Below are positions 11,601-38,749 of a DNA stretch of 64,000 nucleotides, one piece after another. Origin of the DNA: Psammoneis japonica (lineage: Eukaryota). Under the pieces are notes generated by a model. That model was not told where the DNA came from, searched no databases, and worked only from the letters and a program-made list of their open reading frames with translations. The DNA lies in assembly GCA_008632985.1 (NCBI GenBank), contig QPGO01000037.1:62001-126000 (forward strand), written 5' to 3'. The stretch's first letter is position 1. The number at the start of each line of letters is the position of its first letter. A program made the position numbers and the translations under genes.

Positions 11601-12687
11601 TATTCAGCATCTATGCTTATGATTACCTTTAGCAATGGCTTGATAGTCAGAATCCCAGAAGTAACCCAGTTTTGAGTAATGGCATTGTTGGGTTTCCCTT
11701 TTCTCAAACGCAAAACAATAGGCCGGGTATATAGATACGGTAGAGTCGTCAAGCATTCTTATTTTATTGCAACACAGTCTATTCTACTAGAAATCTGTTT
11801 CTTCTAGGTTCTCAAGGCTAGAAGTAGAAGTGGGAATGGAGATCACAGTTTCATTGAAATGCTCCTAGTGCCACGTAAAGGATCCAACTCGATATGAGCT
11901 CCGTCCTTGGTAGCATGACGTATGGACTTATAATTACATTCCTCTCCATCAACTTCAGGTGAAAATGGAGCCTTGTAATAACCATTTCACCTTTTCCTTT
12001 GAAGCCCTGTCCAACCAAGTGAATAAATAATGCTCTCAAAGCAATGGTCGATCCCTTTTTCCCGCATGGAATTCTGTAATAAGCCAACAGCGGATGCGCA
12101 GTCTTGGTGGCGATTCAGCACTGAGCAATCTCTTTGCAATGGCATTCGGAATCACTCCAATGCCATTGGCACAGATCACATGCCAGCAACTGTGACCTTG
12201 GCATGTTGCATTGAGTATATGATGTCAGCACAAGTGATTGTGTTGTCGGTTGTGGCAGAATATGAACGCAAACTTGTCGGTTGTTGTGCGTTGCGTCGCG
12301 GTGAATTTCTAACTAAAATTATTTCGGATTTCGCCCCACAAAAATTCTCTCAGGTACAGCACATCGTGACAGGCGGAAGTACCAGCGTGATCCACCTCAT
12401 CGTTTTGTCGTTCGTGCGCGCGCTTAGTGTGCGAATGCGCGTGTGCGAACGACAACAGACGATTTATGCACCTCTGACCACGATGGCCAATGGCAACGCT
12501 CAGCTTGCGACAGGTCTCTAGTGTGGCCATGATGTTGTGTGATGTGTGATGGGCACTGTGGCACCGCGCACTGTGGCAACACTGTCAGCAGCAACAAGCA
12601 ACGACGTGAGCAGCGAATGGGTGGTGTCACTGTTTGCTGCAGCAGCGCGATTGCTGAAGCTGGTTGCAGGTGCAGCATCATGCAGCA

Positions 12688-12768
12688 TCAAGCAGAAAAA
12701 ATTGAGCGTGCACTGATGTTCCCAATCAACATTGTCATGCATGTCAATCATGCAACAATCATGGATGT
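12688..12768 (+). repeat. Remnant of the Gypsy 5' LTR
   Basis: Matches 15841-15920, including the identical 37-mer TTGTCATGCATGTCAATCATGCAACAATCATGGATGT. Confidence 0.85.
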
Positions 12769-15700
12769 TCTCATCCAGAAGACAAGAAGAGTTGCATCTG
12801 CATGAACAGTGTCAACAAGCACTGCAACAAGCAGGGAGCTCCCAAGTGTGTTGAATTTTTGAAAACATTCAGCAAACTCATTGAGTCTGAAAAAGACAAA
12901 GGAGCCTTTGAGAAATGCCTGCCTTGTCTCTCCAACCACATCTTCCCTGAAAATGAACTTCAGAGTCAGAAGTGGCATCTGCAATGTGATCACAAGAAGC
13001 CAGACTCCATGAAGATCCAAGAAGTTGTGCTGCTTGGACACAGGAGGTCAAGGAAAATTTCAAGTGCTGTCCTCCTTTTGAGCCTTTGCAGAAGAACCTG
13101 GATGAAGAGATGAGCTCTGTGACTGCATTTGCAATGTTGCACCTTGTTGATGGCAACATCAGTCAGCCTTGCAAGGTTTCAAAATTTTGGATCATGCCTT
13201 TGATGAGTTGGTGGAGTTCTTGGAGTGCCTGGAGGTCACTGAGAACACATCTGATCAAACTCATGTCAAACCCAACAAGTCTGGTTGTTCAAAAACCAAA
13301 GATGGCTCTCATTGCAGTCCCAAAAATGGGTGCAAATCTGGCACCAAATGGTCCAAGTCTGACAAGTGGTGCAATCATTGCAAGAAGACCACTCACAAGA
13401 CCAGAGCAAAAAACAGCCAAGAGAATGGTGTGAAGCAAACCCAAAATGGCAAGATTCAAATGGCAACCGGGGGTCACTGAGAACACATCTGATCAAGCAA
13501 ACTGATGTCAAGCCCAACAAGTCTGGTTGTTCAAAAGTTAAAAACCAAAGATGGCTCTCATTGCAGTCCCAAAAATGGTCACAAATCTTGCACCAAATGG
13601 TCTGAGTCTTTGACAACAATTTGGGTTTGCTTCACCATTCTCTTGGCTGTTTTTTGCTCTGGTCTTGTGAGTGGCAATCATGCAAGAAGAGTTGAACACC
13701 ACGATCATTCAGGCGGCCAACAAATCTCTCAAGATGAGTTCCTTCACAAAGAACCAGAAGTGCAGGAACAAGGAATGAGCAACTTGGATGAGGAATGACC
13801 AGCAGCACTCATGGAGATTTGCTCAAGTCCAGTGGTTGAAGGGTCAATGACAAGATCAACAAAACCCTCAATGCCAACTCCTCCCATGCTGCCAACCTCA
13901 ACAATGTGACTGCTGCAGCAACACATCTGACCCCTGAGGAACAAAAGCAACCGAGCTTCCTCCCAAATGGTTTGGGCCCCTTTGTGATGGTTTTCCAGGC
14001 AAACAGATGGGGAAACTGGTGGAGTTCACACTGAAATTGGGCGCAGCTCTGCATCATGCAAAACCTTTTCTCTTTCCACAAGCCTTGAAGGGTGCTGCTC
14101 AAAAGGGAGCAGACTGACTGTGCAAGACAGGAGCCCCAAGAAAAACAAGCCATTCTCTGAATGGGCAGCTCCAACCTTTGTTCAGTTGAAGAAAATCAGT
14201 CAAGCTTGGTTCCTGCTCAACTTCTGTCAGCTCAACAGAATGTCAGTGGCTGCACACTCCATGTCCTTTGCCAAAAATTCAGGATGTGCCACAGAAAAGC
14301 CAGAAGATTTCATGTGTGCAACCTTGCTTGATTTGAGCACAGGACATTGCCGCATTGCATTGACACCACATGCCCATTGTTTGTGCCCAACCATGATGCC
14401 ACAGGGCAAACATGAGCACCGCAGACTCCTCAAGGGAATTTGTGGAGCTCCAAATGTCTTTCAAGAACATGTGAGTGAGCTCATGGCAGGACCAGAATTT
14501 GTCAGAACTCACATTGATGACACAGCCCAATGTGCCTGACAAAAGGCAACTTCAAAGATCATCTGAAGAAAGCTCAAGACAGTGTTCATGCATCTCAAAC
14601 AAGCTGGTTTGAAGGTTGGTGCCAAAAAATCATTTTTTGCCAAGCCCAAAGCAGACTGTCTGGGCTTTCATGTCTCCTGAAACAGCACCAGACCAGCGCC
14701 TGAGAAATTGGAAGCAATTTAAGCAATTGCACCCCCACAACTTGCAAGGAAGCAAGCGCAATGTTTCATTGGTGTGATTGACTGCTGGCAAGACATGTGG
14801 CCTCATCAATCTCATGCACTTGCTCCTTCAGCCAAACTCACCTCATCTGAGAGGCTGAGTGGCAAAGGACAAGCACAGAACAAAATCTTTTGAAACTGTG
14901 AAAATCAAATGATGTTGAAAGACATGTTGTTGTCACACCTGAATTTCAAAGACAAGCTCTTTGAGATGTGTGCCAATGCAAGCAACAATCAATTTGAAGC
15001 AGCCATTGTGCAGAACAGCAGACCTGTTGCCTTCCACAGCCACAAGCCAAGTGGAGTGCAGAAGTGACACACCACAATGGGAAAAAAAATTCTGTCCACA
15101 GCTGAAACACTTGAAAAATTCCAAAACATGCTGTTTGGCCAACAGACAAACATGCACATGGATCACAAAAATCTTGCCCACAAGAATGTTGCAATGGGCA
15201 GAGCCATGCACTGGCATCTGATGATTGAAGAAGGCAGCCTCAAAATGATCCATCTGAGGGCAAGGCTGACGTCATTGCAGATGCGATCAGCAGACCCAAA
15301 ATGCACAAAATCCACAAGCAAATGCCACAATTGAGCATGCACATCAAGGGCCAGGCAACACATGGCCTGCACCTGAATTTTAAAATGCACCCCTGGACAC
15401 ACAGAATCCATTTGAGGGAATGCTGTCAGCAGCAGTCTTTGCAGTGCATTTGACATGCCATGCTGCTGTGCAAGCTGCACCAGGACAACTGGTTCTCAAC
15501 AGAAACATGAAATTTGATGTCCAACACAATGCTGACTGAAAGTTTGTTCAGAAATGAAAACAAGTCATTGCAAATAAAAATGGTGCTAGAGAGAATGCTC
15601 GATGGCATGCACTCCATGCACCCACAGAGTGAGAGAAAAGATCCCGCTGGAGAAAGATTCTCAAAACTAGAACAGCCCTGCATTGGACCTTCTTGTGAGA

Positions 15701-15824
15701 TGACAACAGCACACACCAATGTTGCAGCACAGGAGATCAATCATGGTGATGTTGTTGACACTGTCAACATCCATTGAAGGACTCCATTCAACAAATGACT
15801 CCAATGTGCAGAGCCAGGGAGGCA

Positions 15825-15920
15825 TGTGCAGCACGCATTGTCAAGCAGAAGAAATTGTGTGCATGAATGTTCCCAATCACAGGTTGTCATGCATGTCAAT
15901 CATGCAACAATCATGGATGT
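15825..15920 (+). repeat. Start of the Gypsy 3' LTR
   Basis: Begins TG just after purine-rich AGGGAGG (PPT-like, 15816-15822); matches 12670-12768. Confidence 0.8.
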
Positions 15921-16799
15921 GTGCAAAGGTCAGATCAATCACACAGAAATTTTGTCAGATGTCCAAAATTGCAAATGTGATTGATTGATGATGTTGTTTT
16001 GCAAGATGTCAATGTTGATTGCATCCAGACAATCTTGTCATCACAACTGGATTCTCCAAACACCTTTGCTGTGTGTGAGCAGTGCAAATGCTTTGGGCCA
16101 TTGAAAACTTGTTTGGAGAAACCCAAAACCGCAAAACAAAGTCTCCAATCTCACAATTGTTACTTTCAGTGATTTGCTCTGCTTTTGTTCATGCTCATGC
16201 ATGCTGTGAGCATGGTGCACAGACAAGAAGGTGGCAGGCAGCAATCATGGTGTGGTTGCAGCATTGGATTGACACCAGCACAAAATGCCAACATGAGCAA
16301 CTCAACTCAACACAACGATTGCCAGTTGGCACTGGTGCCCTTTACGGACTTTGGCCCCCAATGGACCCGACCGGCTGGGGTGCAGAACTCCTTGGAGAAA
16401 AGTTCCAGACCGGCATCTAAGAAATGGAAATAGAAAAAGAATGTTGACGCGTTCCAGGTCTAGGTGGGACCTCGTACTGCTGAACTGTGACATCGACAGT
16501 TTTTTGAATCACGTCGTATGTCGCGCACGTAGATTTCTACGTGATTTTTTCGATATTTTGTGTCATTTTACGGTACACTTATTGAGCGATCCGTCCAACA
16601 ACTTTTGACATTTTTTGTTACAGCGCGATTCTATAATGTCTTAAGAATCGCGTAGGGCAGGCGCATTTGCAAAAACGTCGAGTGGTAAGAGGCATAATTG
16701 TACCACAAACTTGGCCGTTTATTTGATGTTTAAGATAAATATATCCATTAATTAAATTCTCGTACTACGGAGCTCGCACGTAGAATTCTACGGGCCCAA

Positions 16800-19700
16800 T
16801 GTCACACGGAGTCCCACCTAGGGCTGGAACGCGTCTGTTTTGCGATCGCACTCAACCCAAAGTTGAGGAGCAACACCGTCAGTTGTCCAGTTCGTCGGAT
16901 GACAATGGGTCCCTGGTGCAGGTTGCTTCATTGTCGCCGGCGAAGCCGTCAGTTTTCCAGTCATGTCAAGTGGGTCCCCGGTGCAGCTGATGAAAAAGAG
17001 AGAGTTGCCAATCCACCACGATTGTCAGGAGTCAGAATGCTCCTGTGCTTGTGCCTCAACCTCCTGGTCCTGAGAAACATGACAACGTTTGGAGGGAGGG
17101 AGGTCTTACATCGTCGTCCTGATTGTTTGTCGGATCGAGTTCCCGAATTCTGGGTTGACTGCACACCCATCTGTGCAGCGCCGCTCGTTCATCCTGGAGT
17201 TGCACACCAACCCCAAGCTTGCGAGACAGACGTTCTCAGGCTGCCACGACATTTGCCAGCCAAGAGCGTTTGAAAGAGGTTGACTTCAAGAGCAGCGAGA
17301 CAACGTGACCGCAGAAATGACAAGCGAATTCCCCTGGAAGACCTTCTCGGCCCCGCTGAAAATGATGGCAAATCCATGAGTCTAGCTTGTCTCTGGCTTG
17401 CTTGCTGATTTGAGGGTGGGCGGCGGCGTTCCTGTGCTCCCACAGCCGATGCGTTATCCTGACAAGTTGGTGGACCCATCTTCTGACCCATTTGGATCCC
17501 GATTTTCTAGAGCCTTGGAGCCGGAAATGTTCCTGTTGCAGCAGAGCCCACTCCTTTGCCACACAGCCCTCCAGAAGTCTGTCCCAGCCAATGACATGTT
17601 GTGACTCAACCACCTGATGAAGGACCGGGCTTGCGCAAGGGTCGATGCAGACATTGACATTTTGCTGGCTGCGCCAGGCAGTGAGGTGTTCCTGAATGGT
17701 GGTCGCTAAACCAAATGCCGCGTCGTTGCGGTCCACCCAGCGGGTGTGTTTGCGCAAGAGCGACCTCCACTTGTCCGTGGCCTCTGGGCAAGTGGTGATG
17801 TGCGTGGCATCTTCATTATCGCCGTCTCACCGGGGGCATCGCAAATGATCCTGAACCTTCCAGCGTTTCAGCCATTTGCCTGCTCCGCACATTCCCACTG
17901 CGTGTTTGGCCATCCACCGTCGTTTGCCGACACCGAGACTCCTGGCGACAGTCTGAATGACATCCCAATCAATCCTGCGAAAGCCCTTGTCCGTGAAGCA
18001 TCTTTTTTGTTCGATCCAGCATTTCGCCAGCCGTGTGCCGTGAACGTGGTGATGCAGTCGATCAGAAAGCTTTGTCGAGATCTTGTGTCCTCCAACGAAG
18101 ACACCCCACATTTCGTCTTCGATGTCAAACTGTCGTGGCTGCCTTTCCTGGGGATCTGGTCTGGTCTCGTGTTGCCATCAAGCTTTAGCCAGGTTGTCCA
18201 TCTCAATGTTCAGTCTTGCCCATCTGTCGAGTCTTCTGCATCGTTGAGTGTCTTGATGTCCTTTGACCCACCGGAATTTCCACCGCAGCGGGCTCTTGGC
18301 GATTTTAGCCTTGACAGCGCTTAAAATGTCGAAGTCATTGGACTGAGCTGTGACGGGAAGAGTGGGGTCCGACGATTTTTGCAGGGCTTGTTTGCCATCA
18401 CAGGCAATTTCAATTGCTCCTTGATGAACGTCATGATGCAGACAAATGTCTTCAACTGTGCAAACAATGCTGCAGAGACCCGCTGTCTCTGCTCGGCAGG
18501 AATTCACATCACCAGGGTGACCTGGCACAACATTGGCACCCGTCACTTGGTGGGTGTCTCGTTTGCCTTGGACAGTGAATGCCGATGTTGCAAGATCGTC
18601 TTTAGCTGACCCGTCACTGACAGCAATGGCTGCTCCTGATTTGATGGCGTTGGCAACACACAATCCATCGTCGTCGACCGAGACTTTGTCGTTCGCCCAT
18701 TGTCTGGCTGGAGGTCGTTGGCGGAGGCGTTGGAGAAGATTGATTGGGGCTGGGGCGTCTTGACTGAGTCTCTTGCCGGTGGACCCCGAGCGACACATTC
18801 CCCATCTGTCCTCACCTTTGTGGCAAACACGGGTGCGTTGACTGTCGTTGGGCAGTGCAGCCGGTCCAGCCGGGATAAATCTGTGATGATGGTTTCTCAT
18901 TTGCCTGCGACTCGACAACCTGAACGATGTCCATTGGTTGTTCTGACCTCTTTGATGTGGTTGCTGTTCAGATGGAGAGTGGAGCCACTGCCAGCGGGAA
19001 TCATTGTCTCTAGCATCAGGAAGCCAGGCGCCCAAGGGATGGTGCAGTCGCCTTGAACAGACGTTGGCAGCCTGTGCAAAGCAGTGCCTTAGAGCCTTGT
19101 GCCACATCGTCCAATCGGCAGCCTTCGGGCGTTGCTGCGGGGGCCAATTGCACTGGGACCGAAAGAAGACATCCTTCTTTCCATTCCACATGTCACACAG
19201 AATGTCACATCCATTGCCAGTTGAGATGTCAGCAAGTGTCACGACATTCAGGAAGACATGGCAACGATTGAGGGCCTGCAGCTCAGCTCCGACAAAGCCA
19301 TCATCTGCAAATCTTTCCATGAGAAAGGCGTCATTCTTGCGTGAGAGTCTCAGCGACGGTGTGTCTTCTTTGATGCTGATGTCGTGGCTTGAAAAGAATT
19401 TCCAAAGATGTTTGACCCATGATTGGGTGGCTGGGCATCCGAACAATTGGTGGGAACTCGCAAGGAAGGAGCTGCCAATTCCGACTTCCAGCTTGTGTTT
19501 CTCCACAAGTGCTTGGAGAAGTTGACCCGTGATCGTGTCAGCTTTGCCGTGTTTGACAAATGCCTTGACATGTTTCCCACACATGGCAGAAGCGATCGAT
19601 TCAAATCCGAGGCCCTGCAGTCGGACAGGACCGTGCACAACTGCGCAGGGAAAGGACTCACACAAACCCAATCTTGGAAGGCCTTGCTTGAGCAGCGGTG

Positions 19701-19901
19701 CTTCGATGCATTTGCATTCTTTCGATGACAGGGCAAGGGCGAGAAGAGGATGGTCAAGGGCCTCATGGACTCGTTGAGTCAGAGCCAGCCACGCATCAGC
19801 CTTGGAAAGATGACCTGGTCAAGCCCGATCCGCCCAACCTTCAGCATGCTTCCGGAGTTCTTCCACCGCCTTCCTGCAGTTTCCGTCAGGGGCTGGCCAC
19901 A
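16800..19901 (-). mobile_element. 3' part of an Ambal-like non-LTR retrotransposon (post-RT region, RNase H, C-terminal domain, 3' UTR)
   Basis: WPAPDGN right after the junction; RNase H AVSDGS / NSCRAETAG / ACDGKQAL / WVKGHQD / LNIEMDNLAKA; C-terminal IGWDRLLEG..LWEHRN; 3' end approximate. Confidence 0.88.
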
Positions 19902-20457
19902 GCATCAGAGGCCGCAACACAGTGTTGTTCACTTTCCTTTGGAAAATTTGGGACATTTGTTTTGACAATTGTGTGCAAAAATTAGTGATGGTTCATTTGT
20001 TTTTTGACAGTCAATTTACACTCATTGTCGCCATTTTATGTTGGCAATTGTCGCCGTTTTATTTTGCTTTTAAGTTGCCAAAGAATTTCAATGAGCCCTT
20101 TGTTGTTGAACAACGCTTTTTGTTTTGATTAATTTTTCACACATTTGTGGAATCGTCAACTTTGACAGTGCTTTTCAATGGCTTCACCGCAGCCTTGCGT
20201 CACCACAGACAATGGCATTTCTCCCTCGCCCCAGTCGGCCATGCAATTGCCTGGAGGAACACCATCTCATTGTTTCCACCTGCACGCTCCAGTTGTCCAG
20301 TCAACAGGCCCCCACCTGCATTTTGGCACCTTTTCTACATGCGCAGTTCTCTGCCCATTTCACAACAGCACACCCTCTCCCCAAAATGCTTTTGACGAGA
20401 GGGTGTGCTGTTGTGAATCCTGCACATTCTACGTGAATCGGCAACTGACTGTTGGCC

Positions 20458-23400
20458 ATGGCTTCTAACGACTTTACCCCATCTGACGACGAGGTCGACC
20501 CTGACCCTTCTTTCCAAATTACCGAGGACTTAAATTTTGATGAAATGGAACATTTCACCAACGGTTTCGGATTCGAATTGTTCCAACCCAAGCTCAAAAG
20601 CACAATTGCAACGCGTGCCTCGAAAAAGAAGTTTTTGGAGTCGACGAATTGGACCCCCTCTCCAGAATTCCTCGCTCTTCCCTTCCTTTGTCACAAGCCG
20701 AAGTTACGCCATGTTCCTCGTGTTGTCGAAGTCATCCGCACCAACAATGTTGTAAGGAAAACCCTTGGCTATCCCAACATTTGGTCCCACATCATGACTC
20801 GTGGTTGGTCCACCAAGAAATCCCGCCGTGCGAAAGGCGAACATGTCCTGCGATGTAAAAATCTCGAGGAGGCTCTGCATTTCTCCAAAGTGTCCGGAGA
20901 GACAGAAAAAGAACAGCACAACCGTGTGCTTCTTCACCGCAACATCCAGGCGATGGTAGAATTTGTTTGTGCGATCATTGCCGGAGACGACCCAAACGAT
21001 CCTTTATCCGGCAAGCCTTGTTTCCGATTTTTACGGTGCAAAAGTCTCCAAAGTTTGATCAACGATCAAGCCCAAGACCTCCACAGTGCCCATTTTGTCA
21101 CTGACATCGTCGTGCGTTACGTTCAGCACAAGCCCAAGGACATGGACTGTTGGCTCTTGAAGATTTTCCGTCACATCAAAACCCAAAAGGAATGGCGCCT
21201 CTTTGTTGACAGCTTTCTGAGTTACATGCGACACTGACGATCCTGGTGCCCAGGCGGATGAGATCAAGGGGTTCCTTGACGACTCAACCGGTGACACAAA
21301 GAACATGGTGACAATGCAAGGCGATTCCCTTGCACGCCGTGAGGCTTGTGAAGAAAAAATCAATTCCATGTTGAATCACGAATTTGGGAAGCGTTGTCCC
21401 AAGGAGCAAATTGGCATCTGACCTGGGTGCAGCAAGCAGCTCACAATGCTCCATTGCAGAATGCGTGATCAGAGGGCCGACCACTTGGAAGACGACAACA
21501 AACGAATCTACAACTCTAAAACCAAACGCAAAATTAGGAGGACCCGCAAGGATGGCACCTGTTTGTACGATTGTGAGAACCCCCCCCCACCTCCCGCCTT
21601 CTACCTTTCCGCCTGCATCTGTCGTCTCAATGTCTCTTCTCACACCCCATGATTGTTCACGACCCACCAGAGCCTTCCTTGACCGTTCCCAACAAGAAGG
21701 CCAAGCCTGCATCTCGCAATGAACAAGCCCCTCCATCGCTTTCTGGCAATGTTCTGTTGTCCGGGGAGGCACACCGGACTCTCACCACTGACCTTCCGTC
21801 ACTCTCAGAAATTGTGGAAAACCTAAAACCTGCTTCTACCTCCAAAGGTCCTTTGTCCAAACCTCACTCCTCTCCTCCTTCTGTTTCAGCCAATCCTCCC
21901 GCGGTTGCGTCTCCTCCCAGTGACCCTGACGACATGTCGTGGCTGGACCTGTCCACACTCCGTGATCGCTTTGACCCATCCAAGTGTCGACCCGTCACCA
22001 CCGAGGAAGTTTCTTCTCATTTGTCACACCTGCACATCATTGACAAAGCCACCGACACTGATCGGGTGCTTCATCATTCTGCCGCCGACTTTTACCTGGC
22101 GGACAACTTGCGGGAAAACTGGCACACGTTCTCAAACAATGCGCCATCATGTGATTCCGCCACCGCATCTCGTGTTCGAACCGAGTGCCCTCCCAACCTC
22201 GATCACTTCTCCGAGGAACTCTCCGTCGCCCGTCAGGCTAACTCTCTGTACAAGGGGCACTTCGGGTGCCTTCGTGCATGCATTCCCACCCTTCTTCCAT
22301 TTATTTTGTTGAAGGGAGAGTCCGATTTGACACGTGACGGACCGGTTGCAGTTCAAAATGGCGAAGCATGCAGGACAAAGTTCGGTTGTGCTGGGAGAGC
22401 GCATCACCCCAAGACGCCTGGTTCTGCCAAACTGGCCAAACCAAAGGCTGCTTACGGACTTGATGTCTTTGAGTCCGATGATGACTTTGACGCCAATGAG
22501 ACCTCCAAAATCAAGGCGATGGCAGCTGACATCCTTGACTCGATTCAGCTTTGCGAAAATGAGGTAGAGCTGAAAAAACTGAGCAATCCACCGCCATTTA
22601 ACTTTTCACTTCGGTGCGAGGAATGCTCGCAAAAGTTGGGCAACGAAATGGGCTGTCTCTTCTTCAAACGTGAGGACGTTGCCATGCAGGGATTGTGCAT
22701 TTCCCGGGGTCAAGTCTGTGATGGTCACTGTGACAATAAAAACTGCACCTGGCGTCGACACAGGAAGACAGCTGCCGGTTGCTTCTTTGTTGTGGATGCC
22801 TTTGGCAACATCTGGTCCTTCAAGGTTGTCACCAACAGCAGAAGGACCATTGGTGAATGCTGCGACGACCAGTGCGACATGAAGCCTGTGCTCACTCGCA
22901 TGCACCACAATCGAGCTCAGCTTGATTTTGCACTTAAAGACTTGGACTTGCAGCACGATGGTCCCACCCACCCCAATGTGTCGCTTTCCAGCATTGCATT
23001 CAAGCATCTTTCCCTTGACGACAACAGGCCGTGGGACAATGTTCTTGTTGGTGGAGGTGGCGACTCTTCACATGTCGAGGTGCACATGGATCGACTCAAG
23101 TTCCCAACTTTCCCAGTCAGGGACTTCCACTTGTCTGCCCCAGTCACAGTGATCTGCCGTTTCAAGAACATTGTGCACCGATCGGGTCCTGACCCAAAAC
23201 GAGTCATTCGTTTGGCGATCCATGCTGGTCATCCCACCGGATGTCGCCGATTTTGCTGCGTGGGGGACAAGCATCTTCCTGACCTTTGTTGCGAAGGTGC
23301 TGACCCGTTTGTCAACTTTGCTGATTGCTTGCAGAACACATTTGGGGTGCCATGCGGTGACCCACAGGTGGGTGGGATCAGCCCCACCAATTTGACGTAC

Positions 23401-24477
23401 GAGAAATTTTGCGATGCATTTCTAGACCCTTGTTGCGTCGGAACCGCGAATGACCTAATTGATGCAATGGTGGAAGAAATCTGTGCTGCACTTCTCTGGA
23501 TGAACAACAACGTTGACACCAACGAGTTCTGTCCCAACTTAATGGAACAATGGTGCAAGGCAGCGTGTGATGCTTGGGCAGACCGGGGAGCAGATTTCAG
23601 TGAGATTCGTCTCATGTTGGTGCTGCAATGTCTGGTGCTGGCAGGTGTCACAGTGAAAGACCATCCAAGACTCAACAACATCATCTGTCCTGTCTTCAAT
23701 TCGGGAGCTGCCGCACAACTGGGGCATGTTCAACCGGAAGAAAGGCCGCTCATGCACCAAAGGATGTCATCCGAAACAGGAACCGAAGAGCACGGTTGGA
23801 ACGGAACTGAGCACAAACTTTGTGAGAATTCAGACAATCGCTGCACCTGTGTTTTTGATTGTGTTTTCCAAGGACCCTGTTCAGGACAAGACCTGTTTGC
23901 CTTCTCTCCCTCTGGGCAGCATCTCTGCAAGCCACATGGGCCAACCGAGTGTGAAATTTTGGAGTGTGTTGACGACGACCCCAACCTTTTCCAATCACAA
24001 GACAATGCTGAATCGTGCACATTTGTGTGTGAATCAGCCATGCAATCAGACGGTGCCAGTGTTTTCTCTGCTGTTGATGGACTGCCCGCGGACAATGAAC
24101 TTAGCTCATTGTCATCGGAGGAGTCTAGACTCGCCGCAAACAATGAACTTGGCTCATTGTCTTCGGAGGATTGTCGATTTGACGTGGAGAAAGAACCAAG
24201 TTCATTGGATTCGGAGGAGTCTCGACTCGCCGCAGACAATGAACTCAGCTCATTGTCTTTGGAGGAGTCTGTGTTGTCGGAGGACTGCTCGTGTCCTGAT
24301 TCTGACTGCCGCGTTCCAATTGTCACGGTAGATTCTGTTGTCCTTCAGTTGCAGGATCAAGAATCCGATGAAGATGATGCAAGTGACGCAACCGCGTGCG
24401 ATCGACCCGAGCCACCGGTCCTTTTACAAGCACAAGATTTTGACATGGACAAACATGTGAATGCCATTTTTGAGTGA
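20458..24477 (+). pseudogene. Large transposon cargo gene (frameshifted; main 942 aa ORF 21649-24477), possible DNA base-modification enzyme
   Basis: Adjacent ORFs 20452-21237, 21446-21652 and 21649-24477 linkable by frameshifts and a TGA; HCDNKN at 22726-22743; SGAAAQLG..EHKLCE ending 23826; acidic repeat tail; Tyr nearly absent. Confidence 0.55.
24090..24270 (+). repeat. In-frame tandem repeat encoding DNELSSLSSEESRLAA-like units (x4)
   Basis: Repeated AATGAACT..GCTCATTGTC..CGGAGGAGTCT.GACTCGCCGCA. Confidence 0.85.
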
Positions 24478-25424
24478 GTCCATCAACAGCCGAAGAACTG
24501 CTGCAATTGTTTGGTGTCATGTTTTTCACAAATCTTAATCCGCAACATGACTCCTCCTGTGCTTTTGTTTCACATTGTCATGTCATCCCCAGACAAGACG
24601 GAGGTGCAAATGTCCTGTGGCTTTGCATGACGAGGCCCGTCATGGCCGGAAACCTGACATTAGATGAGACATGTTCGGACCGTGGCATGGAGGCCATCCG
24701 ATCCACTCAGCAAAGAAGAGATGAGGCAAGGTGTCAAGTCGTTCAGGATCTCTACACGAACTCAAATGTTCGTGCATGCACTGTGTCCCTGCAGGATGGC
24801 AGCCCCGCTTGTCACTTGAATTGCAACACATCCACCAAGAATTTTGCCCAAAGGGTCAAGACGCGGTTTGGAACAGTGATTGATTTTAAGAAAAGTGGCT
24901 TTGTTCAGATCTGCATGGACTGCTGCTGGATGCAAAAAGGGGAGTGGCTGCAGTCGACACTCGGAAATTGCTTCTTTGGCGAAAACCCAAGGGATGTGAT
25001 GGAAACGTTGTTTCATCCAAAGCTCCAGAGGTGCCGCGTCATAATCCCGTGCACCATTTGGTCACTGACCCAAACCGCGCGCAATTTGGACAACATTTTG
25101 GAATGCGCACTGGTGCAGGCCATGACACAGGACATGGCATGTGAAACAGTGACGCTCTGCCAGGCTTCCCAGGAGATTGTGGAGGAGCACCGTGTGGATT
25201 GGCTGGGAAAATCATCTGACCAGGAAGCATTGCATTTGGGAGTCACGGAACAGGAAATTTGGGAAACGCCACCACATGAAGAAGCCAACTCAGTCCCAGA
25301 GTTCCTGCGAGAGTGTGGAAATTACAACCCGAAGGAACCGTTCCCGTTCCTGTCCTTCGAGAGGAGAATTCCCGATTTCAGGGATGAGTTAAGGAAATGG
25401 CCCAGGAGTTGTTTGCTGTGCTAG
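24474..25424 (+). pseudogene. Unknown transposon cargo ORF (316 aa), Tyr-depleted
   Basis: Long open frame abutting the 942 aa ORF; no recognised family. Confidence 0.4.
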
Positions 25425-25538: not shown

Positions 25539-28500
25539 TCACCTGCTTTTGTGAGACAGCTCTCCCCATGCATTTCTGCGGTCTTGAACTGCCCAAACAT
25601 GCTTTGTCCTGTCATGTGTCTCAGCAATGCCGGGTTGCTCCTCACACACCAACAATTTGTCGCCAACAGCATCGATGGGCACCAAGAAAAGCTTGGGTGA
25701 GCACACTGTTTGTTCAGTGGAGGACAAGTTGTTGTTCTTCACTTGGTCCAATTGCCAGCGACTAACCAGGTCGGTGTGTTGCATTCGTTCAACCATGGCA
25801 CGCTTGTCAGGCTGGCACGTGCAAGGGTGAACGACCGCATGCAAGTCACCGTCGCTTTCCCTTTGGAAGAAACAGCGAAGTCTTGACGGGAAGCACAATT
25901 CCCCCCTGGTTGTGCCAAATTTAACATTTGCCCAGTCGTGAGCCGGTCCTTCGCTGTTGCAGTCTGGGTGTGCGCGGCAAGTGTCTTTCCCATTCTTGTG
26001 GGGGAATTCGGTTTTGCAAACAAGGTTGACGGTGAGGTTGCCTCCTGCTCCAACGCATTCCCTCCACTTCTTTTGAAAGAAATGGAGCAGGACCGGGTGA
26101 ACCTGACATTGTTTTTGCTTTCCGTGCCAGAGAAAGCTTGCTGCATTGTTTGTCGCACTGTGGGTGATGGCAAAGGTGCTGCCACCCAGTGTGTGACCAT
26201 CGTCACCACATGCAACGTCCTTTCGTCCAACTCTCGATGTGATCCATGGGTTGGCCGACAACGCACGGTGCACCGTCATTTGGTCTTGCATGCACGACGC
26301 AACCTGACCCAGGAAGATGTCAAAGCTGCGTTGTTGTGCTGTGGCAGAGGGCAATTTGAAAAAATCCTTGAGCAAAGATTCTCCAAGAACAGCGTCAAAG
26401 TTCATGGCATGACGGAAACAACATAGAAAGATTGGAAGGTGAAGAAGCTCGTGAAGTTTTTGCAGCTTCCACCCAGCCCCTTCGTGTCCAGGGGAGCAAT
26501 GTACGATGCGAGACACCAGCAGCCGAATTTTCTTTGTGATTTTGGTCAGGTCAGTTGTGTCGGTCGGTGGGTCGCCAAGTTGATGCCAAGCATGGAAGGC
26601 AAGCAGGTCTTCCAGCAACTGGACGCATTGCCCAACACTGCAACTGAGGGGCTTTCTCTTTTTTTTTTCCTTTTCTGTTGATTGTGGCTGTTGCCTTCAT
26701 CCTCGGACTCGTCCGGTTGTTGTTCCACATGATCGTCTTCATCCGTTTTGTACGGATCATCTGCTCTGTTGTTGGAATGATGATCGTTGCCATTGTCGCA
26801 CTCTTCCGGCATGTGACAGCGATTGATTCGGAACCCAGGTGTCCCATGCCCTGACGGCAATGGAGGATTGTCTTGGTCTTCCTGGAGAAAACAAGATTCG
26901 CAGACATCTCTGCCTTCCTTTGTCAGCAGCAACAAATGAAAAACAAAGGCCATCCCCGCCCAATGATGTGAGTTGAGGCAGGTGAGTGATGTTGCCCCGC
27001 CCTTGAAATTGGTTCGTAAGAAAGAATTGCACGTGGATCGGTGATTGCCAAACATTTTTTCCACCAATCTGTCGACCTCGCTTCTCACTGAGTTTGTCAT
27101 GCTGTCGACAAAAACACCAACCTCCCTTTTTAAAGTTCCGTTTTCAAAAAGGTGCATCATGTCGCTTGCCGTGGAAAGGGTTGCTCCGAACGGCTGTTCT
27201 CCAAAATCTGCATTGAGCAAGCTGTTGGTGGGCACATTGTGCTGCTTCATGCAATGAAGCTGCTGCAGCCAGTGGTTCCTTTCTTGCTCGTCAAGACTGA
27301 GATCATTTGCGTGGTTCTGGACTGACAAAATGTCGCCAGCCCTGACTGGTTCGCACTCCTTCCAAGGGTCGTCAAGCTCATTGTATCCGGTCACGCAAAA
27401 CCTGGAACAACGTTGGTGACAGTTCTTGGCACCATGCCCACCCCACAAGGCAGTCACCACTCTTCGCATCTCCGTTGATTGGGGTTGTTGTTGGAATGAC
27501 ATGAAGGAAACGCATCTCATCACCGCGTCAAACGCAGCAGCAAAAGCCACCGTTTTCCATTGTGTCCAGCAGAGGCTGGAGCATTGTTGCCAACACCTTG
27601 TGACAAAACCCGGATGCTTTGGCCCTTCTCCGACTTTCGAGCGTTAGATTGCTGTTTGGCGGCGGAGGAGGACATTTTTTCTAGGTCGGGAATGTGACCA
27701 AGGACACGCCATTTTGCTCTGTCATGCCATTGGTTGCAGGCAACATGAGCCGACGTAACTGTGACGGGTTCTCTGCAGGAAGACGACATGGAGGCTGTCT
27801 TCCCAGTCTTGTCAACGTAAATTGTCAAACATTCGAGGAACTCTTTAAGAGGATCCAAGACCCTGGCTGCGCACGTGCTTCTGCACCACTCTCCTGCCAA
27901 AACACACTTGTCGTGCTTTCCCTTTGAGACATGCATTCCGCATGGATCGGCAGTGTCGGCGAGATCACTTGGGTTGGCCCATGTGCAAGCATCCAGCATG
28001 AACGATTCCCACACATCTTTGAAATTCCATCGCGGAACTCTTGCTGTTGTCTCACCGCATTCCCCATTGACGCTTTCTAGGTTGACTGGAATCATCTCAC
28101 ATTCCGGACCTGCAAAAGATTCACGTGGGTTCTCCATCAGTTTGGTCCGGCGAGGGATTTGCGTTCCAAGATGGAAGGCACTGCCACAGTGTCTTTCGAT
28201 GAACTCGGCGATCTTGTCGCACAGGTGAAGCGGTGCTCTGCAGTCATCTAAGAGCTTGCACAGCTCTACACAAGCACCGTTGAGGTTGCCAAGAGATGGC
28301 ATGTGCGCAAAGGCATCTTCGGCTGGGCTGCGGCACACCTTGCCCAATCGGCTGTCTTCACTCCGCGAATCATCTTCGTCTGAGCTGTTTGATTTGTCAG
28401 GATTTGTGGCTTCGGAGCCCTCCATTGTGACATCTGGCAGCGTGTCAAATGAGTCATCTGGTGACAAGCTGGCTTCGGAAGACAAGTCCAGGGACATGTC

Positions 28501-28941
28501 ATGAATTTCCTCATGATGGGATCGCGACCCAAGAGCGGAAATGTCATCATCAAACGGTGGTGATCATGGTTCATCGCTTCTGTCGTTTTTGTTGTCAGTG
28601 GACCCAAGCCTGATGTTCGCTGCGGACGCACCTCGTCTGGACCGCCTCAGCCGTGGCTGTGACACGTCATCTGATGAGGAGGAAATGTCGAGATCAACCG
28701 ACCCACGTCTGCGAGAGAATTTGTTGCCAACGTTGGAAGATTTAGCCGCAACCCTTGCTGACAACTCTGGCATTGGGCAGTTTGTGACTGCATCGCGACG
28801 TGACAAGTTGGACATCTCTTGAGCAAACGAAAAACACAGTGGGTCATGATGGAAATGGGTGAGTGTCCGTTTGAAGGATCGTTTGCAACGGGGACATGCC
28901 ACCACACCACCCCCACCCTGCCAACCACCATTTCCTTCCAT
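25539..28941 (-). pseudogene. Plavaka-type transposase with N-terminal zinc finger, frameshifted and hypermutated
   Basis: CPRCKRSF..H..C; LTIYVDKT; EPVTVT; WRVLGHIPDL; DMMHLFENG; WKLQKLHELLHL; NFDAVLGE; CRAHPDC..GPAHDW across ORFs 28564-28941, 27520-28497, 26546-27550 and 25539-26618. Confidence 0.78.
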
Positions 28942-29304
28942 TTGTCATTGCAGCAGGTTTGTGGGCCACCCAAACACATGTGTGTTCGAATGGCAGCACC
29001 GGTTCAGTTCGTGAAAAGTGAAACAGTTTGGGCAGCAAGGAAGGAAAACACGACACGAATTGGCGCGAAAACATGGGTGCATTGTGTTCTTCCCATCAAT
29101 GAAAACATCAACAGGTGAGAATGAATCGAATGCGTTGCGATGATTGACAACTTTGAGCATGAACAACTGGTTGCAAATGTTGTTTTTCTGCGGAAAGGAA
29201 AAAATGAGTTGTGACGTGACAAGCCGTGATGCGTTGCAGCGAGAAGTCTGGGAGGGGTGCACCCACACCTGCTACAGCACCAGACACAAACGTTGCAATC
29301 AACA

Positions 29305-30432
29305 ATGAATGTTGTTGTACAAAATGACCGCTTGACGGCACATTGGCCAAACGACTGCTGGAGGAGATTTGAAAGTTTGACAATCATGACGGCAGATGGA
29401 AGGCGACAAATCATGGAATCGGAGCACGAGGCAGCTTTTGATGAATTGGATCATTTGACACAAAGTTTGCCACAAGGCAGGATGGTGCATTCTGATGACA
29501 CGGGTGTGGCTTTGATCGAGTTTGAGAGCAGCACACATGTGGTTAACCTGCACCTACGCCGTGATGCGATGGACCTGTGATGCATGATGAATGAGGACGA
29601 CATTGAAGGGAGGTGGCGGGAACTGTGGAAGCAGAGGTGCAACCACATGGTTTGGCTGCACGAACATGTGAGTGATTGGAGCACAGAAGCAATTGAGTGC
29701 ATGCACGCCAACACAGGCATGATCTCAATTCACGACAACCTGAACTGGTTGAATGGCGTCGTCAACCGTGGGATTGATGCTTGCCATTTCCCAGAGTGTT
29801 GGGACTGCGTCGCGACTCACCAAGACAGGCAAGGAAGGATGTGCTGTGTCCACAGCACTCTGCACAATGAAGGAGAGAAAGAGCTGAGGGATGAATTTGC
29901 AGCGGGTGCGTGTGATGACACAAAACCAGTCATTGACAGGGGAGACGTTTCGAGATTGAGACGGAATTCGAGCGTCAGCATGCCGACCTGTGGCATGGAC
30001 GAGACAGGCACTTGCGGACCGTTGGGAGAAACATCGGCAAGGGGAGGCACATGCGGACTTGCAATGGACAAGAAGGGAATTGTTTGCGATGCATTGAAGC
30101 TGGCGAAGTGGTTCCAGCGTGACATCGTGCGAGACAACCATGAAAGACTTTGGTTCTGTGAGCAAATGGAGTTCTTCAGGTTGTCTCCACGGACAGTCAA
30201 TGAATGGACACTGGACATTATCTGGAAGGAGGATGGTGAGCGGGAGAAATTTCAAAGCAGGAGAAAGGAAAAGTGTTGGGTGGAGAGACGTCGTCACATT
30301 GAAGTTAACGAATTCGTGAGAATGGTCGGAGCGGAGACGAGGGCTTTCACCCACATGACTGACTGTTCCGACATCAGGCGATGCATCAAGTTGAGAGTTA
30401 CGAAGTTAGAGGGTGATGACGAATTGGACTAG
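29305..30432 (+). pseudogene. Unknown transposon cargo ORF broken by one in-frame TGA (29578-29580)
   Basis: ORFs 29257-29580 and 29584-30432 share a frame; TGA is consistent with CGA->TGA; Cys cluster PTCG..TCGPLG..TCG. Confidence 0.5.
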
Positions 30433-30870
30433 AGAAAACGATTTGGCACCAAAAAGGATGGATGTGCTCAGGCCCCAACAGCAAACCGGAATGACGTTAA
30501 AGCAGGTGAGGGGTTTGTTCATTGTGGTAAAAACAACTTTCACAGGTGCACGTTTCACAATGATGTTTTGAACAAAATGCTTTTGCAAGCAATTTACACT
30601 GTGGAAGTGGATTTCGAAATTGCAGCAAAAGAGAGGTTTGAACTGGAATTTGCAATGATTCAAAATTTTCACAAGATCACAAGGAGTGGCAAAATGGACA
30701 AATTGTGTGCACATTAAAAGATTTGGTCAATTCTCAATTATGTTGCATTTGAGAAAAAGGAATCATTGATGGCAACTGTGAGATTTTTGGCATTAAAGAG
30801 AGGTTTGAAAATTTTCCAACGGCGAAAACAACTGGGACACAAGGCATGGAGCCACCCACAATTGGCGACA

Positions 30871-32096
30871 ATGGCAAGGAAGAAGAAGAAAGGAACTGCG
30901 GGGGTGGCTGGAGATCAACCAACAAGCCCAAGGCCAGCCGCAGCGTTGGTGCGGGTGGGAGCCACTGGGGATCACCAGTCTACAAAGAGAGAGGTAGAAG
31001 AGGTGGTGCGGAAGGAACTTTTCCCAAAGGCAAAATTCCTTGTCAAGGCGGACATGGCAAGCAGTGGCAAAGTGTCGCGGCTCATCAGGAAAAAGACAGC
31101 CGGAGGAAATTACAGCAAGCGAGACTGGGCGGGAGCATGGGAAGACTGGGCAAAGAAGTGCGTCATGTGTGCAATTAACGTGAAAAGGAGCACGGTCACT
31201 CAGGCGATCAAGAACAATGCAACGGCTGGTGGGTGTTTTGTGGTGCACGGCATGTTGAGTGCAGTTGTGCTTGACACAACTGCACCTTTGTTTGTTGAAG
31301 TCGTGTTGACAGAGAATGAAGCAGAGGAGATGCACAGTCAGAAGCCGGCAGCAAAGGGCAGAGGTGGGAAGAAGAGCAAGAAGAGGAAGAAGAATGATCG
31401 CACGGAAGAGGAAGAGCCGTTCCTGGCGACTTGGGGGGAGGAGACTGTGACAACAATTGTGGAGGACAAGCGCAAGAACAAGGAAGCACATGCTTGGTTC
31501 TATGAAAACATCCTGAAATTCACAAAGAGCGCCACCACATGGAGAAGGAAGGTGGAGTCGGGTGAGACAAAGGCAACCGGTCTGGCTGCAGTGAGCGACA
31601 AGGCTCTGGCGCTGTTGATGTTGGAAAACCACTGGAAGAGTTGGGGAGCACAAGGCACGTCATGACAAGACTGTTGCAGCAGGGGGGGGTTCAGACGAAG
31701 AAGATGAGGAAGAGTCGGAACCAACACCCAAGCACACGGACCCGTCAAGGCAACGAGACTCGTGGAAAGATGCAGGGATCAAGCGATTCAACAAACTGCT
31801 TGCGGCAGCAAAAGAAAGACAGGTTGAGTGAGGAGGGCATGCAGTTTGACACATGGTGCAGCAAAAGCAAGAAAAGGAAGAGTGACGAAAGAGGCAAGGG
31901 ATCGAAAAGAAAGAAAAAGCAGGTGGAGGAGGCAAGAACACAGGCAACGACAGAGCTTTCAAGTGACGATGAGGAGAAGGAGGAAGAGGTGACGGACGAG
32001 AACAGAGGAGACGAGGACAGCGACGAAGGGGAGGAGGACAGTGATGCGGAAAGCGATGTGAATGTAGATGCAGATGGTGAGCGAGCTGTGGCATGA
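30871..32096 (+). pseudogene. Transposon accessory protein (helical, acidic C-terminal tail)
   Basis: VVRKELFPKAKF..INVKRSTVTQAIK..VSDKALALLMLENHWKSW, then basic and acidic tail over frameshifts. Confidence 0.55.
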
Positions 32097-32562: not shown

Positions 32563-35500
32563 CACTCCCAGAGTTTCCTTGGTGATGGAGGGTGAAAGCC
32601 ATTCGATCGGATGTCCAGTTCCTTCTGCATCCTCTACGCACATCTGTGGGTTGTCCTGGTCATCAGGATCACCATCTTCGTGAACGCACTCCCATCTGCC
32701 GTTGGACCATTTGAATTCGATTGGATGCCACCAACATTCATCCGGACGAGTGTCGCCTCCCGCAACTCTCATGCCGCCTGCAAAGTGGTCCAGTCCTCTC
32801 TGGGCTTCTTGGACAACTTCCCACCCCGGTTGTGGCGGATCTGTGGCTGTGTGAATGATGTCACTGTCATCGACGAATGCAAACCCCACTGTTCAAAGTT
32901 CCTCGTTCGAGATGGCCAGACGGAAGGCTGCCCCGTGACCTGCAGTCCTCATCATTTCAAGAACGGGAGCACTGACTGCTGCCCAAATCTGGGGGGCATT
33001 GCCGTCACCTTGACCGAGTCCTTGTGGAGGCTTGCAATCCGATTCAAAGTTGTCGGGGTCAAATTCGATTGCGAAGAGGTCGCCACCAAACGATTGCTCG
33101 GATCGACCACAAATTGTTTTTACAGTGTGCTCCATCTGCTGAAGAGTGGTGAATTTGCAGACAATTGGTGGTTCTGGAGCTCCTTTGCTTCACATTGCCA
33201 GTGAGGCACACGAGTGGACGACAAGGTCGTAGCACGAACGTAAGTCCACAGCGGTGTCCACAGCGTTGATTCTGTCCACTCGAATGAGGTCAAAAATCAG
33301 TTGTTTGTTCAGAGCTTGTTCTTCCGCTGAGTGACCCTTCCTGCTGCCGCACTGCTCCCGGGCAATCCATTGCCTGGGTTCGGCTTTCCTCATCATTTGT
33401 CGTCCAAGGATCTTGTTGTTGTTGTTTGCATCCACTTCGAAGCACAGAACAGGCCGCAGAGCATCCACGTGTTCTTGTCCTGTTTTCTTTGGGATCAGAA
33501 GGTCCACACCTTGTTGCCATCACTTTGGAGAGTGGCCTGAGACATGAGGAAAGTTTGCCATGGAAGCATCAAGTTGGGTGAGGGTGTCGTCAAAACGAGC
33601 AGCTTTGAAATGGGCGGTGTGCAACCTCGAAGGACCGGCGCAGATTTTTTCCTTCACTCTCTTCCAAGACTCCGTGTGTTCTTCTGTGGAGATCCACGGC
33701 TTTGCATCCACAGAGCAGTCAGGCGGGTGCCGCAGATGTAGAAGGTGTTCTCGTGCACATTGAGTTGCACCCGGTGGGAATTCATGCCATCTAGAATGGC
33801 GTCTGCGTGGGGCCCAACTCCGAGAAATTGGACGTTGTTGATGAGCGGCTCCTGCATGAGTGCGGTCCGGTGAGTTTGATGTGGTCTTAACTTGCAGTCT
33901 TGGAGGGCAAGAGTTTCCATTTCCTCTTTGTCTGTGACCTCTTGATTGGAGCTGTCTGCTTGTTTCTTGAGGAGACGTGTGAGTGGAGATCAGAGAGGTT
34001 TGCCGGAGATCCGATTGACTCTGCGATTCTGCTCCCCACTCTCTTCGCGGTTGATGAGCACCCGCAGTTGTGTTTTGGCGTTGGAGTTGTTGGCTTTGGC
34101 CAGCTGTTCCGCTCACTTCTCTAGAAACTTGCATCAATGATCAGGAGCATCTTTGGCGATTGCTCGACACTCTTTGTGGCGTGGTGACAAACCTGCCTCC
34201 AACTGTTCGAGAGTGAGGGTGTGCGCATCGAAGTCTTTTGCTTTCCTTTCCAGACGACGCATTTTCCCAGAGCTGATTGTGAGGCGTTTCCGTCGGCGAA
34301 TCAGGGCTTGACACAATTCGATTTGCTTGGACGCTCGTTTGAGCTTGGAGGACCAGGATTTGCCTCCCATGCGAAGCTTTCTGCATTTTTTGTCGGCGAG
34401 CCACACACCTTGAACTCACAATTCGTCAATTCTTTCCCATTCATCAGTGAGGTTGGGATGCGGGGGGGCAAGTGGCTTGCTTTTCGTTTCGAATGCTCCT
34501 GTTGGGAAGATTGTGTGTCAGTGCATGACGTTTACGAATTTTGTTGAATCTGCCAACAGTGACTGGATCGTCAAGTTTGAGTCTCCGAGTAGGGTGCCTT
34601 TTGAGTTCAGGGGGAAGCGCACCAAAAGCGGTCTGAAACAAGATGTCGATCCAAGCCATTTGGTGGTTGGATCCCGTGATTCCATCTCCAAAAGGCAAGA
34701 ACCCGCCCTGTTCGATTGTTGCACCTGCAGTGGCCCAGATGCCATCAATTGGAAGGGAGCCAGGGTTCCGTGTCGCCGGAAGTGAGTCCTCTCCGCAGCG
34801 CTCTGTCAGCAAATTTCTGAGTTGCATGGCTGAGAAGGTGTCTTTGATCTCGGTGGACCGAATGTCTTTGTTCACGTCGCCTGATGGAATGATTTGATCT
34901 CCGTCCGCAAGCCACTTGATGACCTCCTCGGTCAGGTCCTCGATCCAGGCTGCTCGGGGACATCTGTCATCATCGTGTTCGTTGAGATGCCTTTCATGCT
35001 GGGAGCAAACTGTCCTGGCGCCTTTGCGACTTGCACAGGGCCGGTGCGCTGCAACAATGCGAAGAGTCATGCCTGCTTTGCCACGGAATCGGAGCCAAGA
35101 CCACCTTCCCAAACTGGACGAATCTGTGCCTCTTGCGATCACTCTGTGTCCCGCTTGATCGATTGCCATTGGCATCGTTCTGCCTGGCTGGCAGAAAGAG
35201 GAATGTAAGTCGTGAACATTGCAGGTGGCCGAGATGGACGGAGGATGTTCCCAGTGCCCTCGGAATCTTTCCCTTGGTCGCTTGGAATGTGGGACGGTTT
35301 TCCAACACCTTCCAGTTTCATTCGTGCACAATGCATCGATGCATTTTTCTTGAACTGTGCGGTGCACACTTTGGTTTTTTTGATCTTTGTCGTCCAAGGG
35401 AAGGCCATTGATGTTCTGAAATGTGATCTGCAGGGCAGTCTCAGGTTTTTCATTGGTGCAAGCAGCACCATGTGTCTTGTTGTTTGATGGTTGTGTGGCA

Positions 35501-38666: not shown

Positions 38667-38749
38667 GGTTGATTTTCGTTGCTGGTTCACGTGGGTGCTG
38701 GCACTGAGTTTGTGTGGACTTTCCGGGTCACTTTAGATGCTGATGCGCG

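Follow-up and report, generated by a model that had tools for sequence, protein, structure and literature searches.

What could a reading frame of 942 codons, lying in an island of unmatched frames in the genome of the protist Psammoneis japonica, encode? It belongs to a 64,000-nt stretch of contig QPGO01000037.1 (assembly GCA_008632985.1, contig positions 62,001-126,000), which we call the window and whose coordinates we use throughout. A preliminary description had taken the open reading frame (ORF) for cargo of a Plavaka-type transposon, with motifs suggestive of TET/JBP dioxygenases and of aGPT-Pplases, whose clade 2 is now called amino acid:DNA transferases (AADTs). With moderate confidence, we favor a reading in which a multi-copy DNA transposon of the Plavaka/CACTA kind carries the ORF as an accessory gene, here in mutated form; the intact protein would be a bifunctional enzyme that modifies pyrimidines in DNA at C5. 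The description that fits the family best is that of a transposon-borne fusion, in which a TET-like domain whose metal site is atypical is joined to an AADT-like domain with a Glu/Cys dyad.

The reading frame and its homologues

The frame is genuine coding sequence, because it has homologues and is free of internal stops, of which the other two forward frames have 18 and 60 and those of the reverse strand 19-32. It is open from stop to stop over 21577-24477. An open frame by itself says little about function at this locus, because the apparent hypermutation described below, from TpA to TpG or CpA, removes TAA and TAG and never creates stops, so that both strands are left with many long ORFs that are spurious. 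Could the ORF be one of these, an accident of TpA-depleted DNA rather than a gene? Within it TpA stands at 0.11 of expectation (0.03-0.14 in the repeat-rich parts of the window, 0.4-0.77 in the genic parts), all its frames together hold only 7 TAA and 5 TAG alongside 67 TGA, and both strands of the island hold overlapping ORFs longer than 200 codons. However, the other two forward frames carry 12 and 54 TGA codons and that of the ORF carries none, 227 homologues were found, and the core yields a confident structural model (pLDDT 93.8). We regard this explanation as refuted, with a negligible chance of being right.

A word-indexed search of 90% clusters gave a sole relative, the 613-residue P0002, which is identical to the ORF product at 285 of 543 positions (52%) over residues 242-783. 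When a profile of these two sequences was searched against 1.84 billion cluster representatives, it collected 227 at E ≤ 1e-3, 122 at E ≤ 1e-10 and 31 at E ≤ 1e-30: a large, unannotated family of eukaryotic type. In the long members (1100-3000 residues) the conserved part, some 530 residues, is mostly C-terminal, and tblastn with these members extends the similarity upstream to 21694-22100. Pfam gave no informative match for the window ORF, its core, P0002 (E up to 0.1-10) or a member encoded at the metagenomic locus L003, nor for 63 further members (27 scanned at E ≤ 0.01, the other 36 at E ≤ 5); the few stray matches all fall under the curated cut-offs. Among PHROGs, 26 proteins had no match at E ≤ 0.01. 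No locus related to the family was found in viral contigs, and within the window there is no Rfam family and no repeat or paralogue of the family gene.

The motifs singled out in the preliminary description are where it had placed them: HCDNKN at 22726-22743, SFKVVTNSRR downstream of it (including R398, 36 residues after D362), and a stretch SGAAAQLG...EHKLCE whose last residue, E726, ends at 23826. Both HxDxxN and ExxLC are kept in homologues. The counts that follow are from a 77-row family alignment trimmed to the columns of the window protein, unless another alignment is named. In the first motif H360 is found in 59 of 62 sequences, D362 in 61/62 and N365 in 56/62, followed by T374 (58/62), D383 (55/62), K392 (55/63) and R398 (57/63). 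In the second, C725 is nearly invariant (55/56), with E721 in 45/51, L724 in 34/53 and E726 in 42/54. Other conserved positions are spread over the core: R242 (45/45), D297 (51/54), R322 (50/53), E342 (54/55), K349 (50/61; Leu in the window copy), R491 (56/66), S496 (61/65), R576 (59/65; Gly in the window copy), R654 (53/59), R731 (42/46), D737 (41/48) and K761 (32/43). Upstream of the core, a MAFFT alignment of the 35 members that have sequence there shows H159 and R229 in 35/35, R195 in 34/35 and Y149 in 32/35. The conservation of the motifs holds among members that are only 20-30% identical.

Predicted fold and candidate catalytic residues

Although AlphaFold gave an unusable model from 2 sequences (pLDDT 29), the model used here, made from 148, has a pTM of 0.91. 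It consists of a beta-rich region that most resembles TET dioxygenases, with a double-stranded beta-helix (DSBH) of the 2-oxoglutarate (2OG) oxygenase type, and a helical domain of the helix-hairpin-helix (HhH) glycosylase superfamily, so that both of the folds on which the preliminary description depended are predicted. Among the 50 structural matches listed, and going by their titles, about 30 are 2OG oxygenases aligned over model residues 1-165 and 10 are HhH-superfamily enzymes aligned over residues ~165-509. The best match among 48,161 chains is PUGT, a phage 5-PmdU glycinyltransferase. Several weaker results were set aside: the best Foldseek rows were methyl-coenzyme M reductase (TM 0.17, not significant), a BFVD entry at rank 6 named "Amino acid:DNA transferase domain" was too weak to use (E 0.97), and a sequence-profile search of the PDB gave a single designed protein (E 2.2). 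In the ESM Atlas the core had no usable match, and the ORF upstream of the family ORF reached only 0.75, to an unnamed cluster.

For the TET-like half, the closest known proteins are NgTET1 (5CG8), human TET2 (9HXV), CcTet (7VPN/8JKK) and the transposon-borne fungal proteins (PMC12730594). CcTet holds its metal with His326, Asp328 and His376, contacts 2-oxoglutarate with Arg385 and the base with Phe391 and Arg393 (PMC11040006). The HxD part of this arrangement is present in the family as H360 and D362. The spacing from D383 to K392 (9 residues) equals that from His376 to Arg385, D383 lies 15 residues before R398, and the VIA alignment ranges take in the part of CcTet that holds its distal ligand. 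Because these spacings fit, D383 is a candidate third metal ligand, and K392 and R398 may be likened, by spacing and alignment ranges only, to Arg385. In TET2, His1881 and Arg1896 lie 15 residues apart, as D383 and R398 do, and an Asn stands where N365 does in HxDxxN. The family differs from TET/JBP proteins in its lack of a conserved distal His, with an Asp (D383) at the spacing that the basic residues after it would lead one to expect, in the large, helical, enzyme-like domain attached to it, and in its non-fungal host.

For the AADT-like half, the relevant relatives are PaMx11 gp46 (PUGT; PDB 8Z2M), M6 gp51, ViI gp247 and PhiW-14 gp109, all grouped under PF18724, which the GenBank sequence of PaMx11 gp46 matches at E 1.6e-27. 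In these enzymes a Cys is proposed to attack C6 of the pyrimidine, generating an exocyclic methylene at C5, and mutation of the conserved Cys or of the neighboring Glu abolished the activity of M6 gp51 and ViI gp247 (PMC8989533). In PUGT a metal on thymine O4 is held by Glu243 and Thr244, and Cys247 is the proposed C6 nucleophile (PMC11472151). We aligned 120 AADT relatives, and then 132 after adding 10 PhiW-14-type proteins and 2 further phage proteins (from an Acinetobacter phage and a Rhodoferax phage); E243, T244 and C247 of PUGT are invariant in 132/132. When the family was compared with this set by hhalign, a single local match was returned, and it places E721, L724 and C725 on Glu243, Leu246 and Cys247. 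The helical, HhH-glycosylase-like fold of the AADTs is accompanied in the family by a candidate Cys nucleophile with a nearby Glu, at a pairing whose own E value is ~0.1. The AADT reading gains weight because the family's single invariant Cys, with a Glu at the same spacing, falls in the same part of the PUGT-like domain.

Two conserved regions lie outside these two domains. The extension preceding the modeled core contains H159, about 200 residues upstream of H360. The conserved beta segment after the helical domain, which in the model forms strands 495-499, 508-511 and 517-520, may rejoin the beta core. By contrast with these, the Ser/Glu-rich tail encoded by a tandem repeat is not conserved in homologues, and the alignment with P0002 stops at residue 783. 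Table 1 collects the coordinates.

Table 1. Features of the family gene and its surroundings, in window coordinates
Feature	Positions	Strand	Basis or remark
Weak candidate left terminus	20023..20045		Inverted pair of 23 nt, 78%; not established
Upstream ORF, 259 codons from Met	20458..21237	+	Homologous to the N-terminal module of longer members
Linker; homologous reading frame passes 1 to 2 to 3 to 1	21221..21652	+	Translations compared by eye with P0003, P0004 and P0007 (alignment A3)
Family ORF, 942 codons	21649..24477	+	Earliest Met at 21649; stop codon 24475-24477
Conserved N-terminal extension, residues ~100-241, with H159, R195 and R229	21946..22371	+	MAFFT of 35 members; outside the structural model
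TET/JBP-like DSBH region, residues 242-406 (model 1-165)	22372..22866	+	Predicted structure
H360-x-D362-x-x-N365 (HCDNKN, codons 360-365)	22726..22743	+	Found in 8/8 sequences of alignment A3
D383...K392...R398 segment; candidate counterparts of the distal metal ligand and the basic residues that contact 2OG or the base	22795..22842	+	Spacing only
Helical HhH-glycosylase-like/AADT-like domain, residues ~406-750 (model ~165-509)	22864..23898	+	Predicted structure
E721-H-K-L724-C725-E726, candidate catalytic Glu/Cys motif	23809..23826	+	Conservation and hhalign to PUGT
Conserved C-terminal beta segment (R731, D737, G756, K761, positions 763 and 781)	23839..23991	+	Model strands after the helical domain
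48-nt tandem repeat, 3.9 copies, coding the Ser/Glu-rich tail	24086..24270	+	Tandem Repeats Finder, self-BLAST
Convergent gene, putative transposase, in three overlapping frames	25539..28563	-	Homologous to the L003 Plavaka-domain ORF
Weak candidate right terminus	30851..30873		Partner of 20023-20045; not established

The probable surrounding transposon and the state of this copy

A profile of 8 rows recovered 5 metagenomic loci that encode relatives, and three of these (L003, L004 and L005) are copies of one element, 96.8-97.7% identical. In L003 the family gene (441-4964, forward strand) is followed by an ORF for a Ulp1 protease and then by a convergent ORF of 1277 codons (7003-10836, reverse strand), residues 204-357 of which match the Plavaka domain PF18759 (E 4.2e-8; 33.2 bits against a cut-off of 26.3). 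In tblastn this ORF and the convergent gene of the window are colinear: residues 873-1244 with 26642-25548 (E 2.2e-13) and residues 139-338 with 28275-27649 (E 6.9e-8). Because of this alignment, two independent elements share the same layout. The proposal that the ORF is Plavaka cargo is thereby supported only indirectly, through the neighbor's homology to a PF18759-bearing ORF; the window's ORFs at 25539-28563 have no Pfam match of their own. The Ulp1 ORF (Peptidase_C48, PF02902) stands directly after the family gene in all three copies (L003:4946-5560, E 1e-8; L004:6509-7216, E 9e-7; L005:1772-2386, E 4e-6). The window ORF at 24474-25424, which occupies the corresponding place, has no Ulp1 similarity.

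The element appears in many copies. In run X1, one DNA sample kept as contigs that may be the window's own source, 1382 contig pieces align to 20300-24600 at 90-100% identity (324 at ≥ 99%, 456 at 95-99% and 602 at 90-95%), so the gene exists there in many diverged copies; this suggests that the element is highly repeated. The differences listed are 73 transitions and 13 transversions. Word depths summed over the same interval are in the thousands.

Like CACTA/EnSpm elements with captured host-type genes (Plavaka, and elements that carry a Ulp1 protease), the element is large and pairs a putative transposase gene with a long accessory gene in convergent orientation, to which the L003 type adds Ulp1. 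It departs from them in that no definite termini or target-site duplications were found in the window and the window's transposase ORFs fall below every Pfam threshold. Plavaka-type termini are described as TGT..ACA or CATCA..TGATG with target-site duplications of 2-3 bp (PMC12730594). The weak pair in Table 1 includes an 11-nt perfect inverted match (20023-20033 with 30863-30873), with a near-repeat of the word 24 nt further in from the left end; a search with the terminus word gave 6 matches at ≤ 1 mismatch against 2.0 expected, and 3 of 100 shuffles reach 6. No matching duplication flanks this pair.

The gene probably began further upstream than the ORF does. The preliminary description had confined the gene to 21649-24477, and that span does correspond to the ORF, but homology continues upstream through the ORF at 20458-21237: in tblastn, residues 77-297 of the relative P0003 align with 20548-21222 (E 3.9e-25). 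This ORF, which has no Pfam match above threshold, is probably the 5′ part of a gene that originally began at 20458. Between the two ORFs, from ~21230 to 21650, there are three frame changes, either frameshifts or assembly indels. In the linker the X1 contigs have variants, a loose end (21570) and two joints (21310>21351 and 21479>21847), with no listed indel at the shift sites. The joints leave out 40 and 367 bases of the linker, and a 64-base duplication falls inside the 48-nt tandem repeat. Also in the linker is a run of nine C (21580-21588), and a near-perfect palindrome (20359-20417; 28-nt arms, 93% complementary, with a 3-nt loop) precedes the methionine codon at 20458 by about 40 nt.

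The core has lost nearly all of its tyrosine (0.4%, against 2.6-4.5% in seven homologues) and is rich in cysteine (7.0% against 1.7-4.1%). Relative to P0002, Y>C (10) and Y>H (8) are the most frequent substitutions, ahead of I>V (7), T>A (5) and I>M (5), and all of them are consistent with change of TpA to TpG or CpA. TpA-poor 2-kb bins cover 12001-16000, 18001-46000 and 60001-64000 of the window, with an excess of TG+CA of 1.3-2.0; CpG is depleted (0.05-0.41) at 12-16, 40-46 and 60-64 kb, and is retained at ~0.7 over 18-38 kb. The pattern looks like repeat-targeted A-to-G (T-to-C) hypermutation at TpA. Of 44 columns where at least 80% of the family agree, the window copy departs from the consensus in 7, including K349L, Y371H and R576G, and ranks 28th of 31, although it keeps H360, D362, N365, D383, R398, E721, C725 and E726. 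Because tyrosine codons and conserved residues are lost and the frame changes cut off the upstream module, the copy in the window is probably inactive, a relic.

The window is eukaryotic, and its flanks carry genes for a chromate transporter, a ubiquitin-conjugating enzyme, a lysine methyltransferase, pieces of a trehalose-phosphate synthase and a Cu/Zn superoxide dismutase. Between them is an island of long ORFs (~17-39 kb), none with a Pfam match. Those at 34444-38732 (reverse strand, 395-507 codons in several frames) and 18178-19818 (reverse strand, 546 codons) also have no similarity to the element studied here and probably belong to other mutated mobile elements. The stretch 29000-32000, in the interval from the putative transposase gene to the weak right-terminus candidate, shows strong strand asymmetry and has a GC skew of 0.21-0.32, an AT skew of 0.15-0.38 and overlapping ORFs of ~300 codons on both strands.

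Candidate chemistry and its rivals

In the intact protein, the HxD site of the TET-like part would bind metal and act on the 5-methyl group of thymine or 5-methylcytosine (5mC). Cys725, aided by Glu721, would attack C6 of a flipped pyrimidine, as is proposed for Cys247 and Glu243 in PUGT, and the substituent at C5 would then be exchangeable or removable. The likely gain for the element would be evasion of silencing that is based on base modification. Phages offer a precedent for the pairing of the two activities: their thymine dioxygenases of the TET/JBP type consistently occur in linkage with kinases and AADTs (PMC13229309).

Several results weigh against such an enzyme. On the TET-like side, the 2-His-1-carboxylate triad is incomplete: no His of the 542-residue core other than H360 is conserved, the next best columns reaching 23/45 and 19/42. 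The preliminary description had been unable to place the distal His, and across the family there is no conserved one to place. D362 and D383 are 21 residues apart, against 48 between the corresponding ligands of CcTet, so the barrel must be built differently; perhaps it is closed by the strands at model residues 222-245 and 495-520, in which case the helical domain would be an insertion. To our knowledge His/Asp/Asp is not a triad used by 2OG oxygenases, and oxygenase activity is therefore uncertain. Tet_JBP (PF12851) is unmatched in the window ORF, its core, P0002, the L003 member and 63 further members. Of the TET/JBP assignment, then, the DSBH-like fold and HxDxxN stand, whereas the distal His and the Pfam match do not.

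On the AADT-like side, the hhalign match is not significant (E 0.09-0.12, probability <1%) and covers 15-26 columns only; it was not improved by widening the AADT profile to 132 sequences, and global mode gave nothing. Statistical support for equating E721 and C725 with the PUGT residues is thus weak. The AADT-invariant residues D24, P25, Y27, R89, E92-R94, R97, G144, K150, D153, P176 and R235 could not be paired with residues of the family, and PF18724 (ADDT) is unmatched in the window ORF, P0002, the L003 member and 63 further members. Unlike AADTs, the family protein is eukaryotic, transposon-borne and fused to an oxygenase-like part, and it is without a 5-hydroxymethyl-2′-deoxyuridine (5-hmdU) DNA kinase: no 5-hmdU-kinase-like part and no Walker A motif were found in 154 family proteins, and Pfam scans of members, of the ORFs of L003-L005 and of those in the window's island gave no kinase, although a kinase of the host might activate the hydroxymethyl group. 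The aGPT-Pplase assignment is nevertheless the better supported half of the original proposal, through the structural match to PUGT and the alignment of the ExxLC residues, although the Pfam match is wanting. Because membership by Pfam profile fails for both families and one TET feature is absent, we file the family as working like TET/JBP proteins and AADTs rather than as a member of either.

The structural comparison leaves room for a different enzyme. PUGT (6.7) is tied with AGOG-type 8-oxoguanine DNA glycosylases of archaea and bacteria (5.6-6.8; 7OU3, 1XQP, 3N0U and 7OLB, at 7-11% identity), so that the fold alone cannot separate transferase from glycosylase, and Foldseek searches of the PDB and BFVD gave nothing at E ≤ 1e-3. 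If the helical domain were a glycosylase, the fusion would be an "oxidise and excise" demethylase, TET-like oxidation joined to AGOG/HhH base excision and functionally like TET acting with TDG. What tells against it is the nearly invariant Cys with a Glu four residues before it, an AADT signature that aligns with E243 and C247 of PUGT; we know of no glycosylase for which such a Glu/Cys motif is a signature. A conserved Asp/Lys pair of the HhH-GPD type was not identified either, no residue-level test for one having been made, and we think the glycosylase unlikely. Nor do we give much credence, about as little, to a protein with no catalytic role, an accessory like the DNA-binding TnpA-type protein of CACTA elements, whose folds would bind DNA or modified bases and whose HxD and Cys would be structural or metal-binding. 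The missing distal His, the want of sequence-profile matches to catalytic families and of a kinase partner, and the fact that HhH domains bind DNA would all suit such a protein, but conservation is centered on the reference catalytic residues (HxDxxN 90-98%, C725 98%, E721 88%), and its persistence among members 20-30% identical is commoner for active sites than for scaffolds.

Within the reading as a pyrimidine-C5 modifying enzyme, a more specific version is tentative: intact members would be self-contained, transposon-borne editors in which a TET-derived domain with a His/Asp/Asp site oxidizes thymine or 5mC in the DNA of the element and Cys725 then attacks C6 in the manner of AADTs. Two outcomes could follow: a nucleophile is installed, giving nuclear DNA a hypermodified base like those of phages, or the oxidized one-carbon group is expelled, giving demethylation that is independent of repair. 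If this is true, the element would rewrite its own epigenetic state by either route. It is also speculative that the family's base-modifying chemistry underlies the hypermutation of TpA to TpG or CpA in the repeats.

Genes of the TET/JBP family are carried in fungi by Plavaka, EnSpm, Zisupton, Kyakuja, Dileera and other transposons, and no AADT-like partner is mentioned for them in the available part of that source (PMC12730594). We found no description of a TET-like/AADT-like fusion in the literature searched, which excludes the 2013 Nucleic Acids Research paper of Iyer and colleagues, where priority may lie. That paper defined the aGPT-Pplases, and its abstract reportedly mentions related systems in stramenopile algae.

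Hypermodification of thymine by AADTs has so far been a phage matter, and transposon-borne TET/JBP proteins have so far been fungal. A fusion of the two, repeated in a protist genome and present in at least 227 environmental sequence clusters, would suggest that some eukaryotic mobile elements bring phage-style DNA chemistry into nuclear genomes, and it would offer a candidate enzyme for unexplained modified bases or demethylation activities in algae.

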